From the NCBI GenBank assembly GCA_023418995.1, contig JAEZYP010000037.1, positions 48,041-112,040 of the forward strand: a stretch of DNA of 64,000 bases, read 5' to 3'. The notes under the pieces are model-generated. The model was not told the DNA's origin. It searched no databases and saw only the letters and a program-made list of their open reading frames with translations. Made by a program: the position numbers and the translations under genes. This document shows, in pieces, positions 2,430-48,825 of the stretch (the first letter of the stretch is position 1; each line of letters begins with the position of its first letter). The stretch comes from Bacillota bacterium (GTDB taxonomy: Bacteria; Bacillota; Clostridia; Oscillospirales; Acutalibacteraceae).

Positions 2430-2580
2430 TTCGATTCCCTTCTACCCTATTTTGTTTTCTTAAATGTTTTGGTTTATATCTTTTTGTCCACATTAAAGAA
2501 ATGATTTGCATTATTGTTTCAGCAACGCAAAATGAAATAAAAAGAATTCCAAAATGAATCAAATCTATTTGATTAAACAT
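2422..2580 (-). CDS. Hypothetical small membrane protein (52 aa)
   Basis: Own translation: MFNQIDLIHFGILFISFCVAETIMQIISLMWTKRYKPKHLRKQNRVEGNRNE, a hydrophobic helix plus basic tail. Its ATG overlaps the upstream stop. Below the ORF-track size cutoff. Confidence 0.3.
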   Translation of the reverse strand: MFNQIDLIHFGILFISFCVAETIMQIISLMWTKRYKPKHLRKQNRVEGNRNE

Positions 2581-2782
2581 TTTTTCCCCTCCCGCACCAC
2601 ATTAACCTATCCCATTCCGCTTGCAATTCAGCAAGTTTTGCATTCTCATGGATTGACCGGCGTGGCTTGTTTTTGAGATTCAGTATTTCCCGATATAAGA
2701 TTCTGCGGCGTTGCGGTATATCCATGTTTGTTCCTCCAATACGCATCGGCCCGTCTTTCTGCTGCTCCAAATACTTTCGCAT
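2573..2782 (-). CDS. Hypothetical small protein; start uncertain
   Basis: ORF-track ORF. The internal ATG at 2725 (MDIPQRRRILYREIL...) is the one preceded by GGAGG. A second frame, 2646-2810, overlaps it (see findings). Confidence 0.4.
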   Translation of the reverse strand: MRKYLEQQKDGPMRIGGTNMDIPQRRRILYREILNLKNKPRRSIHENAKLAELQAEWDRLMWCGRGKNV

Positions 2783-2821
2783 TGAATTTTGGTTTATACT
2801 GTGGTTTCATCGTAATCCTCA

Positions 2822-2860
2822 TAAAAGAACCAGCGGCAGTAAATTAATACCGTCGCTGGT
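2822..2860 (-). terminator. Intrinsic terminator closing the RNA island
   Basis: Minus strand reads ACCAGCGACGG-TATTAATTTA-CTGCCGCTGGT, an 11-bp stem with 1 mismatch and 1 G-U. It is followed by TCTTTTAT. Confidence 0.6.
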
Positions 2861-3312
2861 TTGGTTTGTTATCGGGCAGACTTCGATATCTGCGCGTACG
2901 TTCCAGAACGTACAAGATTGTGCGTATTCCTTTTCGCCACCGATAACTATTCAGTTTGTTCCCCTAGTACAAGCAAAGACATAGGAGAAACGGCAGTTGA
3001 TAAAGCCGTTTGGTGCCAACATCACGTTCCGACCGTGATTCTGTCGCTTATAAGGCAACCGCACTACCATTGTGCTATATTGGCATACGCCCAGCTTTCG
3101 TATCGTTTTCCCTTTCGGTACTCTGCCGGTCTACTTGCTGGGTTAATGTCAGTTTCGTACCCACACCATTAAAGCGGCTATTCCTGACTGGCGCCAATCG
3201 TGGTATCATTGCAACCTTGTTTGGCATATATGCGCCCGGAGAAAGAATAAGCCGGGCGCATAGGGAATATCTAAATAATACTTTTAGGCATACTTTTACA
3301 CTATGAATTATA
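2861..3312 (-). ncRNA. ORF-free structured RNA island (unclassified) surrounding a tRNA-like gene
   Basis: No minus-strand ORF of 60 aa or more across ~500 nt inside an otherwise gap-free operon. More GC-rich than the flanking phage genes. Readable elements: 10-bp hairpin 3230-3261, closed ~108-nt domain 3087-3194 with three CGAAA motifs, hairpin 2988-3011, four-way junction 2868-2947. Confidence 0.4.
3011..3084 (-). tRNA. tRNA-like gene, anticodon UAU (Ile), CCA encoded; non-canonical T-loop
   Basis: Minus strand: GCCAATA-TA-GCAC-AATGGTA-GTGC-G-GTTGC-CTTATAA-GCGAC-AGAA-TCACG-GTCGGAA-CGTGA-TGTTGGC-A-CCA. It has a 7-bp acceptor stem, a D arm with GG, U33, A37 and a 5-bp T stem. Its two G-U pairs would be C-A mismatches on the + strand. 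The T-loop deviates from TTCRANN. Confidence 0.55.
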
Positions 3313-3624
3313 TCACGGAATTATTGATTCTGTCAAGAGAATTTCAATTTCTTTTGGAAATAAACTTCTAAAATCATCGTCTCTTAAATTACCAATAAAA
3401 TAACAAGTTCCAAAACATTTTTTTCCTTTTACATGAGTGTTTTTTATGTAATCATTATTTTTTCGATTTGTAGCAATAATTACTTTTTTATAATACTCAA
3501 AGTTAGCTTTCCCTGATTCTAAGACTCTTTCCATGCTGTTGATATCGCTTCGTATAATTTTTTTATAAGGTTTTTTGTCAGGTGGTACTACTAAAATTAA
3601 AAATTTCGATTGGCAGTTTTCCAA
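3313..3624 (-). CDS. DUF3846-like protein (recalled family), very AT-rich
   Basis: KFLILVVPPDKKPYKKIIRSDINSMERVL...FIGNLRDDDFRSL resembles the DUF3846 pattern as I recall it. TTG start. Much lower GC than its neighbours. Confidence 0.4.
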   Translation of the reverse strand: MENCQSKFLILVVPPDKKPYKKIIRSDINSMERVLESGKANFEYYKKVIIATNRKNNDYIKNTHVKGKKCFGTCYFIGNLRDDDFRSLFPKEIEILLTESIIP

Positions 3625-3908
3625 TTTATTTTACCCCTTTTTATAATTATTCCTTTAAGCATTGCGGAAGCTTTAATTTTAACCAATTCGTCAATGCACC
3701 AATTTATTTCGTTTTCGATTTCAACAATTTTTTCAACAGCAAACTGAATTTTGTTTGGCTGTTCTCCACCCTTTGGCATATCTGACAATGTAGGCGTAAT
3801 TTTGGTTGCCCTTGCCATCCATTCAGCGCGCTCCTCAAGTAAACGATCGATTCTGCGGCTAATTGCTTTATATCGCCCTAAATACTCAATTTTTTCTTGG
3901 CTTGTCAT
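3597..3908 (-). CDS. DUF1492-like phage regulator, apparently N-terminal half only
   Basis: From ATG 3908 (AAGGAGGG RBS): MTSQEKIEYLGRYKAISRRIDRLLEERAEWMARATKITPTLSDMPKGG...VEKIVEIENEI. This matches the N-terminal pattern of DUF1492-type late regulators. No sigma-r4-like HTH half follows. Confidence 0.4.
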   Translation of the reverse strand: MTSQEKIEYLGRYKAISRRIDRLLEERAEWMARATKITPTLSDMPKGGEQPNKIQFAVEKIVEIENEINWCIDELVKIKASAMLKGIIIKRGKINWKTANRNF

Positions 3909-3919
3909 ATGCCCTCCTT

Positions 3920-4201
3920 TTAGCACTTCTCAAACTCAATTTTCATACCTTTTGCTGTTGCATACTCAAATTCCATCCGTGCGCCTTTGCTATTCTCCCA
4001 TCCGTGAAGAAAATACACTGTGTTACAAGCATCTATCATGGCGTAACAGATAGGCATATAGGCATCGTGTGGCAATCCCTCTGGCATAAATGCCGGATTA
4101 AAAACAATATGGTTTTCTGATAACATACGGTCTACACGGTCAAAGTTTTCGCGATAGTCTGGCTCTCCGGTAATTGGGCCCGCTATGTAAATTACACTCA
4201 T
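3920..4201 (-). CDS. DUF4406 / nucleoside 2-deoxyribosyltransferase-like protein
   Basis: MSVIYIAGPITGEPDYRENF...NPAF...LHGWENSKGARMEFEYA matches the DUF4406 pattern as I recall it. Confidence 0.55.
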   Translation of the reverse strand: MSVIYIAGPITGEPDYRENFDRVDRMLSENHIVFNPAFMPEGLPHDAYMPICYAMIDACNTVYFLHGWENSKGARMEFEYATAKGMKIEFEKC

Positions 4202-6596: not shown

Positions 6597-6935
6597 TTAC
6601 TTTTCATATGGCGTCACCAAAACAGTAATACAATCTCCATCGTAAAATTCATGGACAATTTTTTTGACAAATTTCCGGTTATCGTCATGAATTATCCAGC
6701 CTTTTAAAGCGTCCTCTACCATTTTTGCTATGTAAGCGTGATTACTGCAATCCAAACCGTCATTCCAGTAAAATGTGATTGTTACAGGATTATCACTCAT
6801 TCTCTGTGGAACGTTCTGACGCATCAATTCCGCGTGTACAGTAGAATGCCAAAAGTTGCTATCTTTTTGCCTTGCGCGGTAATGCTTGCCTGCGTAAATA
6901 GCATTTAAGCTGAATTGCTTGGAAAACTGTTTCAT
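6597..6935 (-). CDS. RusA-like Holliday junction resolvase (tentative)
   Basis: SLNAIYAGKHY... and GLDCSNHAYIAKMVEDALKGWIIHDDNRKFV parallel RusA PSNNRYY... and DLDNLQKAAFDAL...LDDAQV. One catalytic Asp position appears to be substituted. Confidence 0.45.
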   Translation of the reverse strand: MKQFSKQFSLNAIYAGKHYRARQKDSNFWHSTVHAELMRQNVPQRMSDNPVTITFYWNDGLDCSNHAYIAKMVEDALKGWIIHDDNRKFVKKIVHEFYDGDCITVLVTPYEK

Positions 6936-17997: not shown

Positions 17998-18291
17998 CAA
18001 TTTCCGCAGATTTTACCGGGTCTGATGATTTCTCAATCATTTGTATGATATTTTCCTCATATTCGTTTTCCAATACAATTACCCCATTCGTATTTTTTCA
18101 TTCCCCTACAGTTTACGCTCCATGGGTTGGTCACTTCCTTAAAAATATCTTTTAATGACAATATCGGCATTTTGCTGATATTTTTCACAGGAAAACATTT
18201 CCTGTGAACTTATGTTCTATTATATCACAAATTTTAAACTTTTCAAGCACTAAATATAGGTTTTAAAGTCTATATATTGGGGGGTTATAAT

Positions 18292-19368
18292 ATGGCCAAC
18301 GCAAAAAAACTGCCAAGTGGAAAATGGCGTACTCTTGCATACGGTGGAAAAGATGAAACAGGCAAAAGGATATACAAATCGTTTACTTCTGCTGATAAAA
18401 AACAATCCGAATTCCTGGCGGCAGAATACGAATTAAAGCATAAGGCTGAAAACAAATCCTCAAAATTAACATTCCAAAAGGCTGCGGATCGTTACATTGA
18501 AAACAAAACCAATCTTCTTTCACCGGCAACAATCCGTGGATACCGGATAATGCAAAAAAATTGTTTTGATCTGATGCTTAACAAAGAATTAGAATCTATA
18601 TTTTCCAGCGATATCATTCAGAAGCAAATGAATGAAAACGCAAAAGAGTACGCGTCCAAAAGTCTTAAGAATCAATTTGGCTTTATCTCTGCTGTGATGG
18701 GATATCACAAATATCATATTGATAATGTAACGCTTAAACCGTCTGAAAACAAGTCGCTTAAAGTTCCCACCAAAAGCGAATCATTAAAAATCATGAAACT
18801 TTTGGAGTCCGCGCCGGAAATTGAATGTCAGGTGTTGCTTGCACTCACTTGCAGCCTGAGGCAGAGCGAGATCGCCGCAATTAAAACAGAAGATATAAAC
18901 GGAGACCAAATATTTATACACGCTGCACTTGTCCCCAACGAGAATAATGAATGGATATATAAATTAACCAATAAAACAAAAGCCAGCACACGGACAATTG
19001 ATATGCCAAAATACCTTTCTAAAAAGATTGCTAAAATAGCAGAGTCAAAAAAAGATGGTTATATTTTTAACACAAGCCCTATAGTTGTTTTAAAACGGTT
19101 CAAAAAATTGTTGCGTGAAAATGGTATGCCTGAGTATACGATACACAGTTTAAGGCATTGCTTTGCCGCTACATTACACGCTCAAAACGTACCGGATAAA
19201 TACGTAATGAAAATGGGTGGATGGGCTAGTGACCACGTTTTAAAAAAGGTTTATCAATACGCTTTTGACGATGAAACAAGCAAAATTAAAGTCGAAACGA
19301 ATAAGTATTTTGACAGCATTTTAAATCAAGATGCAACACAAAAAGCAACACAAAATAAAAACACATAG
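18292..19368 (+). CDS. int: Tyrosine-type phage integrase
   Basis: MANAKKLPSGKWR... start; HSLRHCFAATL (HxxR) and ...GGWASDHVLKKVYQY (catalytic Tyr region). Confidence 0.9.
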   Translation: MANAKKLPSGKWRTLAYGGKDETGKRIYKSFTSADKKQSEFLAAEYELKHKAENKSSKLTFQKAADRYIENKTNLLSPATIRGYRIMQKNCFDLMLNKELESIFSSDIIQKQMNENAKEYASKSLKNQFGFISAVMGYHKYHIDNVTLKPSENKSLKVPTKSESLKIMKLLESAPEIECQVLLALTCSLRQSEIAAIKTEDINGDQIFIHAALVPNENNEWIYKLTNKTKASTRTIDMPKYLSKKIAKIAESKKDGYIFNTSPIVVLKRFKKLLRENGMPEYTIHSLRHCFAATLHAQNVPDKYVMKMGGWASDHVLKKVYQYAFDDETSKIKVETNKYFDSILNQDATQKATQNKNT

Positions 19369-19395
19369 GTTCAGAGCCAATTATAGGCTATTTTT

Positions 19396-19423
19396 GAGGG
19401 TTCAAATCCCTCTTTCTCCGCCA
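19396..19423 (+). other. attR core: 3' fragment of a tRNA-Ser-like gene (T arm, acceptor 3' strand, G73, CCA)
   Basis: GAGGG-TTCAAAT-CCCTC-TTTCTCC-G-CCA. No D or anticodon arms upstream, because the integrase CDS occupies that space. Confidence 0.7.
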
Positions 19424-46170: not shown

Positions 46171-46295
46171 TTGATTTACCTCGCTTTATGGATTAAAGAT
46201 ATTTGCCCATAGACGGATTTGCACCGCCGCCTTTGATTACCAACGCTCTACTTAAGCTACCAGGGCATATTTAAGAATTGATTTTCATTTATATA

Positions 46296-47292: not shown

Positions 47293-48825
47293 ATGGTTTG
47301 TCGTTTATTTAGTATGGGGATTTACGGTATGGACGCCTTTGTTGTGGAGGTTGAGGCGGACATATCGCTTGGCCTGCCCGGCTTCGATGTTGTGGGACTG
47401 CCCGACGCAGCCGTAAGAGAGTCCCGCGACCGGGTACGCTCCGCTATGAAAAACTGCGGGTTTGAATTTCCCATTCAAAAAATTACGGTCAACCTGGCCC
47501 CTGCGGATAAACGAAAGGAAGGGCCGATTTACGACCTTCCTCTGCTGATTACACTGATTAAGGCCAGCGGCCAGCTCCGCGCGGAGCTGGATGACTGTGT
47601 ATTCATCGGGGAGCTTTCGCTTTCGGGAGAAATTCGTCCGGTTAAGGGAATCCTCCCCATGACAATAAAAGCAAAGGAAGAGGGCTTTCAGAAAATATTC
47701 GTACCCGAAGCAAACGCGGCAGAGGGCTCGGTAGTGGAAGGAATTCAGGTTTATCCCGTTCGGAATATGATCTCGCTTTTAGATCATTTGACCGGACGCG
47801 GCGAGCTCCTTCCGGCTTATCCGAATCACGACCCGGTGCAAAGTGAGCTGCCGATGCCTGATTTTTCTGAAGTTCGGGGGCAGTCGGAGGCCAAACGTGC
47901 GCTGGAGATTGCGGCGGCCGGCGGTCATAATGTTTTGTTGATTGGGTCACCGGGTTCCGGGAAAAGCATGCTTGCGAAAAGACTTCCCTCTATCCTGCCG
48001 GATATGACATTTGAGGAAATGATACAGACTACCAAGATACATTCGGTTGCCGGCACCATTCCGCAGGGCGTATCACTGATTAAAACAAGACCGTTTCGCT
48101 CACCGCATCATACAATCTCAGCCGCCGGACTGTCCGGGGGTGGAACCATTCCCCGGCCGGGAGAAATTTCACTGGCTCACAACGGTGTATTGTTTCTCGA
48201 CGAGCTTCCGGAATTTTCGCGCAACGCAATGGAGGTACTCCGACAGCCGGTTGAGGATGGAAGAGTGACAATCTCCCGCGTGAGCGGAACCATCTCTTAC
48301 CCCTGTTCGGTAATGCTAATCGCCGCAATGAACCCGTGCCCCTGCGGCTATTTCGGGCATCCGGCCAAGCCTTGTACCTGCTCGGCAAATACAGTTTCCC
48401 GCTACCTTTCCCGCGTTTCCGGCCCGCTTCTGGACCGACTGGATTTACATATCGAGGTACCGCCTGTTGAGTTTGATGAAATTGATTCCGAGGAGCGGGC
48501 GGAATGCTCCCAAAAAATAAAGGAGCGAATTGATAAGGCCAGAATAATTCAAAATGAACGGTTTCGAAATAACACCGTTACCTGCAACGCTCGGATTACA
48601 CCGGATATCCTGCATGATGTCTGCGGCTTAAGCGAGGATGGAAGAAGCCTGCTGCGCCGCGCGTTCGAAAAGCTCGGGCTTTCCGCCAGAGCGTATGATC
48701 GTGTATTAAAGGTCTCGAGAACAATTGCAGATTTGGATTCCTGTGAACAAATTATGCCCCGCCATGTTGCGGAAGCAGTACAGTACCGCAGCCTTGACCG
48801 GAAATACTGGCTTAAGGAACGATAA
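47293..48825 (+). CDS. comM: YifB/ComM-family Mg-chelatase-like AAA+ ATPase
   Basis: From ATG 47293 (GGAGGA RBS): MVCRLFSMGIYGMDAFVVEVEADIS...; Walker A GSPGSGKSM; ...GVLFLDELPEF. Confidence 0.88.
   Translation: MVCRLFSMGIYGMDAFVVEVEADISLGLPGFDVVGLPDAAVRESRDRVRSAMKNCGFEFPIQKITVNLAPADKRKEGPIYDLPLLITLIKASGQLRAELDDCVFIGELSLSGEIRPVKGILPMTIKAKEEGFQKIFVPEANAAEGSVVEGIQVYPVRNMISLLDHLTGRGELLPAYPNHDPVQSELPMPDFSEVRGQSEAKRALEIAAAGGHNVLLIGSPGSGKSMLAKRLPSILPDMTFEEMIQTTKIHSVAGTIPQGVSLIKTRPFRSPHHTISAAGLSGGGTIPRPGEISLAHNGVLFLDELPEFSRNAMEVLRQPVEDGRVTISRVSGTISYPCSVMLIAAMNPCPCGYFGHPAKPCTCSANTVSRYLSRVSGPLLDRLDLHIEVPPVEFDEIDSEERAECSQKIKERIDKARIIQNERFRNNTVTCNARITPDILHDVCGLSEDGRSLLRRAFEKLGLSARAYDRVLKVSRTIADLDSCEQIMPRHVAEAVQYRSLDRKYWLKER

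Follow-up and report, generated by a model that had tools for sequence, protein, structure and literature searches.

A putative RNA-gene cassette with an intact tRNA-Ile(UAU) and a tRNA-Leu-like element ahead of the packaging genes of an Acutalibacteraceae prophage

The tRNA-like stable RNAs of phage T4, species 1 and 2 (rnaC/rnaD), are co-transcribed with the phage tRNA cluster, and in the Stx phage 933W the tRNA genes ileZ-argN-argO are found downstream of PR'. The logic by which PR' and Q control late genes has been described for lambda (PMC6266700). ROOL and GOLLD, of unknown function, lie in prophages beside tRNAs (PMC5737381), and rliG, expressed in the lysogenic state of phi10403S, is one of few phage transcripts present in lysogeny (PMC7397523). 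Considered here is a non-coding island in a prophage of an Acutalibacteraceae bacterium (Bacillota; assembly GCA_023418995.1, contig JAEZYP010000037.1); the window is the whole 64,000-nt stretch analysed, positions 48,041 to 112,040 of that contig. Positions 2811-3340 of its minus strand are best read, with a probability of roughly 0.55, as a cassette of RNA genes in the promoter-proximal leader of the late (packaging) operon, between an Ltr-type regulator gene and a set of small open reading frames (ORFs), HNH and TerS genes. As read from the sequence, the cassette is opened by a consensus promoter and closed by an intrinsic terminator, and holds a hairpin, an intact tRNA-Ile(UAU), tRNA debris and an 80-nt element, here called E2:

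3336-3307, minus strand: sigma70 promoter (TTGACA, 18 nt, TG-n-TATAAT)
3282-3306, minus strand: conserved initial transcribed sequence TCATAGTGTAAAAGTATGCC, holding a TGT-AAAAGT element
3230-3261, minus strand: leader GC hairpin of 10 bp with a 12-nt loop, a C/U-rich stretch before it and AUAUAU after it
3189-3225, minus strand: decayed tRNA 5' fragment or minihelix (GCCAA...TTGGC, then GCCA)
3088-3188, minus strand: unique insert with three (U)AC(C)GAAA(G) repeats
3011-3084, minus strand: tRNA-Ile, anticodon UAU, encoded CCA (ARAGORN; Rfam RF00005, 50.7 bits against a gathering score of 29)
2988-3011, minus strand: tRNA trailer hairpin (z = -4.45), UUUCUCC after it
2868-2947, minus strand: E2, a cloverleaf without an anticodon arm (z = -3.1)
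2822-2860, minus strand: intrinsic terminator closing the cassette, 12 nt before the ribosome-binding site (RBS) and ATG (2810) of the first downstream ORF

As in T4, tRNA genes and tRNA-like RNAs share one unit, in which acceptor-type stems would guide RNase P processing. The sequences are, however, unrelated to rnaC/rnaD; the phage here is temperate, the unit lies at the early/late junction with a consensus promoter and terminator of its own, and E2 as a class combines a defined D arm of tRNA-Leu type with the T loop UGCAAAU. The likeness to lambda PR'-6S-tR' and to 933W is one of sequence layout only: ahead of the late genes stand a strong constitutive promoter and, after it, a terminator, and the interval is, as in 933W, a slot for tRNAs including an AUA-reading tRNA-Ile. 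Here, in contrast, the lineage is of the Firmicutes type, the adjacent regulator is Ltr-type (DUF722/DUF1492) and not Q, and antitermination is only presumed.

The minus strand of 2823-3312 contains no ORF that reaches 60 aa (the two longest have 50 aa and 39 aa), and the GC content of 2801-3300 is 0.445-0.50, against 0.23-0.33 just upstream and 0.31-0.43 just downstream, both as claimed in a preliminary description of this DNA. Plus-strand ORFs of 98-105 aa cross the gap with no support from Pfam or PHROG. A protein-coding remnant as the source of the island was rejected for want of such support. The promoter matches both hexamers at 12 of 12 positions, has the extended -10 TG, and overlaps the stop codon of the upstream ORF; transcription would start at about 3302-3300. 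Taken with the terminator (-17.4 kcal/mol, z = -5.5, U tract 2828-2823), it makes the interval a promoter-to-terminator unit. The terminator, the 10-bp leader hairpin (-18 kcal/mol, z = -4.9 against shuffles) and the trailer hairpin had all been noted before and are upheld by their z scores; the promoter was missing from that list of minus-strand elements, as was the direct repeat TATGCCAA that flanks 3230-3087.

In a permissive Rfam scan of 2600-3500 (E<=10) the tRNA at 3011-3084 was the only match, which excludes ROOL, GOLLD, tmRNA and known ribozymes or riboswitches as far as covariance models tell. For tmRNA neither Rfam nor ARAGORN gave a match in the window. Blastn searches of the INPHARED phages with the island and with the first 20 kb gave no match.

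E2 had been described as an 80-nt four-way junction with D-arm-like and T-arm-like hairpins. Its minimum free energy fold is exactly that junction, and the element is indeed tRNA-like and belongs to a conserved phage RNA class. The acceptor GTTATCGG/CCGATAAC, in which TTATCGG pairs with CCGATAA, is followed by UG and a D arm, GCG-AAAAGGAAUA-CGC. The anticodon and variable region is replaced by a 7-bp hairpin with the 4-nt loop CUGG, and a 7-nt anticodon loop is absent. Beside the 3' acceptor strand stands a T arm, GCAGA-UAUCGAAG-UCUGC. The T arm of the class is GCAAGG-UGCAAAU-CCUUGC; the window hairpin at the equivalent place has compensatory stem changes and a different loop sequence. Because the acceptor and D arm are shared and the T-arm loop differs, the window copy, the smallest, is filed as a divergent member of the class. 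Among the related loci fetched for comparison (numbered with L), L071 and L073 are 79-84% identical to its first 31-38 nt (5'). Its 5' end matches L046, L071, L073, L075 and L001, and its 3' end matches these and L053.

The ends shared by E2 copies are 5' GTTAYCGG-TG-GCG and 3' CCCGATAAC(C), and they stand at the island end in L046, L001, L071, L073 and L075. The sequence GCCCGATAAC was rejected as a free-standing DNA motif, being the 3' acceptor strand of E2. The interior measures 28 nt in the window, about 75-150 nt in others and about 400 nt in L001, where the copy (2908-3354) is split by a PDDEXK_5 nuclease ORF (Pfam 1e-13). The PDDEXK_5 family includes a tRNA-intron homing endonuclease; Rfam found no group I intron in L001.

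By blastn with one copy, both ends at the proper spacing were found in at least 15 cultured Firmicutes phage records, and at least one E2 piece at E<=10 in 196 phage records. The cultured members are phages of Listeria, Bacillus (SPP1), Enterococcus, Brochothrix and Paenibacillus, with partial matches in Lactobacillus phages. The six cultured records examined leave E2 unannotated or place it under a dubious coding sequence (hypothetical or unnamed products):

Listeria B025: DUF722 regulator, E2, gp64, HNH
Brochothrix BtpYZU01: regulator, E2, two ORFs, terS
Enterococcus EG-TP1: E2 after a 'transcriptional activator' gene, at the genome end of the record
Enterococcus vB_Edu_21C1: E2 directly behind tmRNA, within a tRNA array
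Bacillus SPP1: E2 upstream of the scaffold gene
Paenibacillus Pd_22F: E2 in an intergenic gap

The Listeria B025 copy has rliG (RF02415) and rli62 (RF01486) directly upstream of it, in the intergenic region from the Ltr gene to HNH/terS, both scoring just under their gathering thresholds. The window differs in that neither RNA has a match there, and E2 is covered by neither model. Other RNAs also accompany E2 copies. In SPP1 (L079 1623-1654, record ~6773-6804) E2 is directly followed by a minihelix, an acceptor stem with a GGGUUCAAUUCCC T arm, which gives a weak match to the tmRNA model. An abiF RNA motif (43.2 bits) lies directly after E2 in L046 (1127-1162), with no AbiF gene nearby, and B025 (L078) has an mcrA RNA motif (78.1 bits) at 1775-1825, upstream of its HNH gene.

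The stems of E2 covary. Across 10 phage lineages, 10 of 13 pairs in the acceptor and T stems show compensatory changes (6 of 7 in the acceptor), 97.7% of cells are paired, and 0/500 shuffles reach any of these measures, the stems having been tested on hand-extracted halves, which introduces selection bias; slid controls drop to 27-44% paired. Inverted repeats of this kind could instead act as signals in DNA: they might mark a region for cos/terminase recognition or form the terminal inverted repeats that bound a small mobile element. The position upstream of HNH and TerS, like that of cos in HNH-cos phages, the E2 copy at the physical end of the EG-TP1 record and the nuclease ORF splitting the L001 copy would suit such signals. 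However, the covarying stems contain G-U pairs only when read on this strand, and this speaks for RNA rather than a cruciform in DNA; the sequences of D arm and T loop, too, are those of a tRNA. Annotated tRNA-Leu genes of cyanophages and of an Erwinia phage are matched by the 5' piece alone, marking the D arm as tRNA-Leu type, and further E2 copies stand at a distance from pac or cos, within tRNA arrays or, in SPP1, upstream of the scaffold gene. A role at the DNA level is thus very improbable, and nothing observed at this site indicates cos, which the preliminary description had named as one possibility.

With class II tRNA-Leu, E2 shares the 5' part UG-GCGG-AAUAGGUAGA-CGC, the acceptor stem and the T arm. 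It differs in lacking an anticodon arm, replaced by a tetraloop hairpin in the window copy and by 38-150 nt of unrelated sequence in other copies, and in the UGCAAAU T loop of the class and the want of an encoded CCA; the acceptor can reach 8-9 bp in the window and in metagenomic relatives, and T stems mostly have 6 bp. Tested as a tRNA, E2 has no Rfam match (E<=10) and no ARAGORN call at default settings, and with introns allowed ARAGORN gave no consistent call over six copies. An intron-containing tRNA was rejected on that inconsistency, and a group I intron in a tRNA gene on the lack of an Rfam intron match and on inserts of 28-150 nt in the copies other than that of L001. With tmRNA E2 has in common the tRNA-like ends and a large insert, and a tmRNA lies in the corresponding slot of L001/L042 and before E2 in vB_Edu_21C1. 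A tmRNA was nevertheless rejected, as E2 is matched as such by neither Rfam nor ARAGORN, has a D arm and contains no tag reading frame.

No Rfam family corresponds to E2, and a literature search with sequence strings gave nothing relevant. It is possible that the element has been described under a name outside Rfam 15 and the searchable literature, but E2 is apparently a widespread, covariation-supported and undescribed class of tRNA-Leu-like phage RNA. Conservation of its elbow (D/T) and acceptor beside a replaced anticodon domain suggests a non-decoding tRNA mimic, one that in our view some tRNA-binding factor takes for a tRNA. Possibly, though at less than even odds, E2 defines an undescribed class of phage RNA derived from tRNA-Leu, a non-decoding mimic with variable inserts for the anticodon domain, and, joined with repeated units (C/U-rich stretch, GC hairpin, AUAUAU, acceptor stem), builds a modular cassette system for RNA processing. 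So conceived, it would act for example as a decoy, as a scaffold for processing or stability, or as a regulator of late expression, and would be located either in tRNA arrays or in the interval from the late regulator to the packaging genes, in uncultured phages also.

The second RNA gene is the tRNA-like cloverleaf with encoded CCA of the preliminary description, which ARAGORN and Rfam identify as tRNA-Ile(UAU). Its anticodon loop has 7 nt, CUUAUAA, and the anticodon UAU is readable; its T loop, GUCGGAA, has G at positions 54 and 58 (Rfam alignment). ATA codons number 18.5 per 1000 in prophage ORFs vs 8.9 in host ORFs, and the tRNA plausibly supplies AUA decoding. Together with its trailer it is 76% identical to L053 937-1023 over 89 nt, and the trailer start ACCAAA(C)GGCTTTAT is common to both. 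The trailer hairpin at 2988-3011 might terminate transcription weakly or serve in 3' processing. The L053 homologue itself (940-1010) has a canonical T loop and an 8-nt anticodon loop, GAUAUAAA; it scores 37.9 bits in Rfam and is not called by ARAGORN.

Between the leader hairpin and the tRNA, a structured domain of about 108 nt with a suspected pseudoknot had been proposed at 3087-3194. Its folding is at shuffle level (z = -0.55; 55/200 shuffles as stable), as is that of 3189-3225 (z = -0.02), which aligns to the 5' acceptor strand and D arm of the tRNA-like gene of L053 and so provides the proposed domain with a decayed tRNA copy as its 5' flank. The unique insert 3088-3188 (~100 nt) has no similarity in any related locus fetched. 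In L053 the leader hairpin is joined straight to the tRNA homologue; relative to it, window 3225-3088 is an insertion, of which the first ~35 nt align with a tRNA 5' end. Being unique and inserted, this stretch rules the 108-nt domain out as a conserved RNA.

These results also bear on the whole ~0.5 kb as one large, ornate new RNA like ROOL or GOLLD. The full transcript folds better than shuffles (z = -4.2), and both of those RNAs lie near tRNAs in prophages (PMC5737381). The z score is, however, carried by local hairpins, the tRNA and E2, the middle 108 nt are unstructured and unique, and modules are present or absent independently in relatives. No covariance-model match to ROOL (RF03087) or GOLLD (RF01998) was found in 2600-3500 at E<=10 or in related loci, and ~490 nt of separable modules contrast with a single fold of 580-800 nt. 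A single RNA is largely refuted and has the least chance of all the explanations weighed here. What stands of the tRNA-associated RNA island proposed in the preliminary description is therefore a minus-strand island with its tRNA, hairpins, terminator and E2; a single ornate RNA of the ROOL or GOLLD kind does not hold, and its fallback, a long structured late-operon leader, fits the architecture of the cassette.

Related loci place the island in a shared layout. Homologues of the DUF3846-like ORF that precedes the island, 75-83% identical, were found on the metagenome contigs L052-L057 and L066-L069; the same promoter comes after each of them. Promoter and initial transcribed sequence are 84-91% identical in L052-L057, L067 and L069, and the L054 promoter also scores 12/12. 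ATTCATAGTGTArAAGT is invariant in 8 loci, and the sequence further downstream is otherwise unrelated. Terminators equivalent to 2822-2860 are present in L052, L053, L054, L056 and L067; the L057 and L069 contigs end before any terminator, L069 within the hairpin. Cargo between promoter and terminator varies:

L067: terminator at about +25, after the conserved initial transcribed sequence
L054: promoter, a leader of 125 nt that includes the hairpin, terminator, then terS 35 nt on, which leaves no space for another promoter
L053: hairpin, directly followed by the homologue of the window tRNA, then ~400 nt more
L052 and L056: small tRNA-like units as cargo

The same layout with other promoter sequences is found in L001, L046, L071, L073 and L075: promoter, leader, a C/U-rich stretch (CCUCCUUUC-like), GC hairpin, A(U/C)AUAU and an RNA with an acceptor-type stem at its start. 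The equivalent slot of L001 (= L042) holds a tmRNA (1726-2051, Rfam 90.7 bits, tag DKTYISERAAA) and a tRNA-Pro(AGG) at 2584-2655. The leader hairpin takes this position in 11 loci, its loops unrelated and its stems conserved (3/6 core pairs compensatory, 97% of cells paired, 1/500 shuffles as good), which, coming from few hand-extracted sequences, is an indication only. MAFFT alignments of this hairpin and of the small tRNA-like units came out of register. The hairpin/acceptor-stem unit is repeated several times in L073. A loose descriptor, 'acceptor stem + NCCA', found 35 instances vs 33 +/- 5 in shuffles, and since it is not enriched an array of such modules is not claimed statistically.

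Some sequence is shared among islands as well. An 85-nt module (CGGTACTACTTTRCGGAGTAGCAAGCGGATGAAA...) is 87% identical between L001 2496-2580 and L056 3459-3543, islands that are otherwise unrelated, and L001 and L071 have several further long non-coding blocks in common. INPHARED gave no blastn match to the L001 and L056 islands. In IMG/VR, exact-pattern scans with island pieces returned chance matches or nothing, and a protein scan with the DUF3846-like alignment found none. Exact-protein look-ups for HNH, TerS, a 93-aa protein, P0001 and P0021 returned no record. Genome relatives found through HNH are too distant, most of the metagenome ones, which are mosaic, lack the island, and in L043 the region is coding throughout.

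We propose that transcription of the cassette yields a single precursor, which is probably made in the lysogen already, as the consensus promoter and terminator suggest; for expression in lysogeny rliG of Listeria, in the equivalent intergenic region, sets a precedent (PMC7397523). From the layout, RNase P would cut at the 5' ends of the acceptor-type stems, always after 'hairpin + AUAUAU', and the hairpins would then shield the new 3' ends of the upstream products. Expected products would be a short C/U-rich leader RNA, a stable E2 RNA and tRNA-Ile(UAU), which would read AUA, a codon that prophage genes use at twice the host frequency. L054 lacks the space for a second promoter ahead of terS, so late transcription in this phage group probably starts at the cassette promoter and must pass the terminator. 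The late genes would then be on only with read-through of the cassette terminator(s), presumably under the Ltr regulator, by the PR'-6S-tR' logic of lambda. The slot may have turned into a landing pad for RNA cargo, with none in L054 and tmRNA in L001.

The same data could be read with the RNAs as bystanders: the island would be a cis-regulatory late-operon leader of the lambda PR'/qut/tR' kind, in which a constitutive promoter loads an antitermination factor at the initial transcribed sequence, terminators silence the late genes in the lysogen, and the tRNA pieces are passengers. Only promoter, initial transcribed sequence and terminator are invariant across L052-L057 and L067 (L057 ending before any terminator), the L067 terminator follows the conserved sequence at ~+25, the L054 terminator is 35 nt from terS, and the logic of Q, qut and PR' is described (PMC6266700). 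The TGT-ArAAGT element, TGT-AAAAGT in the window, resembles an extended -10, as at sigma-dependent promoter-proximal pauses, which is suggestive only. Yet no match to the Q family was found among the proteins flanking the island, Ltr proteins are reported as activators, and the tRNA-Ile is intact. E2, moreover, shows purifying and compensatory evolution far beyond this promoter family, also in lytic-phage tRNA arrays, and is thus not a mere passenger. We consider a purely regulatory leader unlikely, at about one chance in five in plain terms, and keep the RNA-gene cassette as the preferred explanation.

Several points weigh against the cassette. The unusual T loop, GUCGGAA, means that full function of the tRNA-Ile is not guaranteed, and the 8-nt anticodon loop of the L053 homologue indicates that some tRNA copies are decaying. 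About 140 nt (3225-3088) are left without an assigned role, and the leader-hairpin test rests on hand-picked stems from few sequences. Transcription start, processing sites and product stability are all inferred for this organism. Finally, Ltr proteins have been described as activators of a terS promoter, not antiterminators (PMC3753634), and no protein resembling Q was identified.

The tRNA and tRNA-like modules could alternatively serve in counter-defence, as spare tRNAs or as decoys against tRNA-targeting nucleases or tRNA-sensing systems. Evasion of anticodon nucleases has been put forward as a role of phage tRNAs (PMC10264068), E2 keeps elbow and acceptor without an anticodon loop, and the slot in relatives also holds tmRNA and the abiF RNA motif. 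The argument is, however, purely analogical, with no defence gene or nuclease target to tie it to, and AUA codon supply already explains the tRNA, so that counter-defence appears improbable.

The prophage genes around the cassette, and the integrase gene further away, are as follows:

3597-3926, minus strand: Ltr-type late transcriptional regulator, 109 aa (PHROG 36 'transcriptional regulator', 2.6e-7)
3313-3624, minus strand: DUF3846-like ORF, AT-rich (23-33% GC), its 3' end overlapping the promoter
2573-2822, minus strand: two small overlapping ORFs of 58 aa and 69 aa
2085-2429: HNH gene, downstream of the island and the two small ORFs
1164-1673: TerS gene, after HNH
18277-19368: integrase gene, a tRNA 3' fragment directly after it

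Homologues of the regulator (P0002-P0017) have 136-166 aa with DUF722 or DUF1492, the latter being the LtrB family (PMC3753634). The ORF at 3313-3624 matches Pfam DUF3846 at E = 0.012, under the family cut-off. Short regulators (90-109 aa, with the C-terminal helix-turn-helix portion missing) occur precisely in those loci in which the AT-rich DUF3846-like ORF comes next (window, L052-L057, L071), and the pair may be a split or replaced regulator. The frames of 58 aa and 69 aa at 2573-2822 correspond to one 82-aa ORF in L001; a frameshift, programmed or mutational, may have split them. The tRNA 3' fragment GAGGGTTCAAATCCCTCTTTCTCCGCCA at 19391-19423 (plus strand), adjoining the integrase gene, is probably the att site and right prophage end, and the intact att tRNA would be expected to the left of the window. 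A second tRNA-like sequence lies in host DNA at 46204-46266 (minus strand; Rfam tRNA 34.4 bits, no ARAGORN call) in which the anticodon arm is nearly missing. Its T loop, UGCAAAU, is that of the E2 class; AAATAT stands before it, and an RBS and ATG follow ~35 nt after.

Phage tRNA genes are common and ordinary, and the cassette goes beyond them. In a broad group of Firmicutes-type phages the interval from the Ltr regulator to terS can be a dedicated slot for RNA cargo, separately expressible, in the form of tRNA, tmRNA and tRNA-like RNAs. E2 is strongly covarying and, in the cultured records examined, including SPP1 and B025, unannotated or under hypothetical coding calls only, so that its function is testable in tractable hosts. 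That a consensus promoter and then a terminator stand right upstream of terS also raises the question whether the Ltr-type 'activators' act via terminator read-through.

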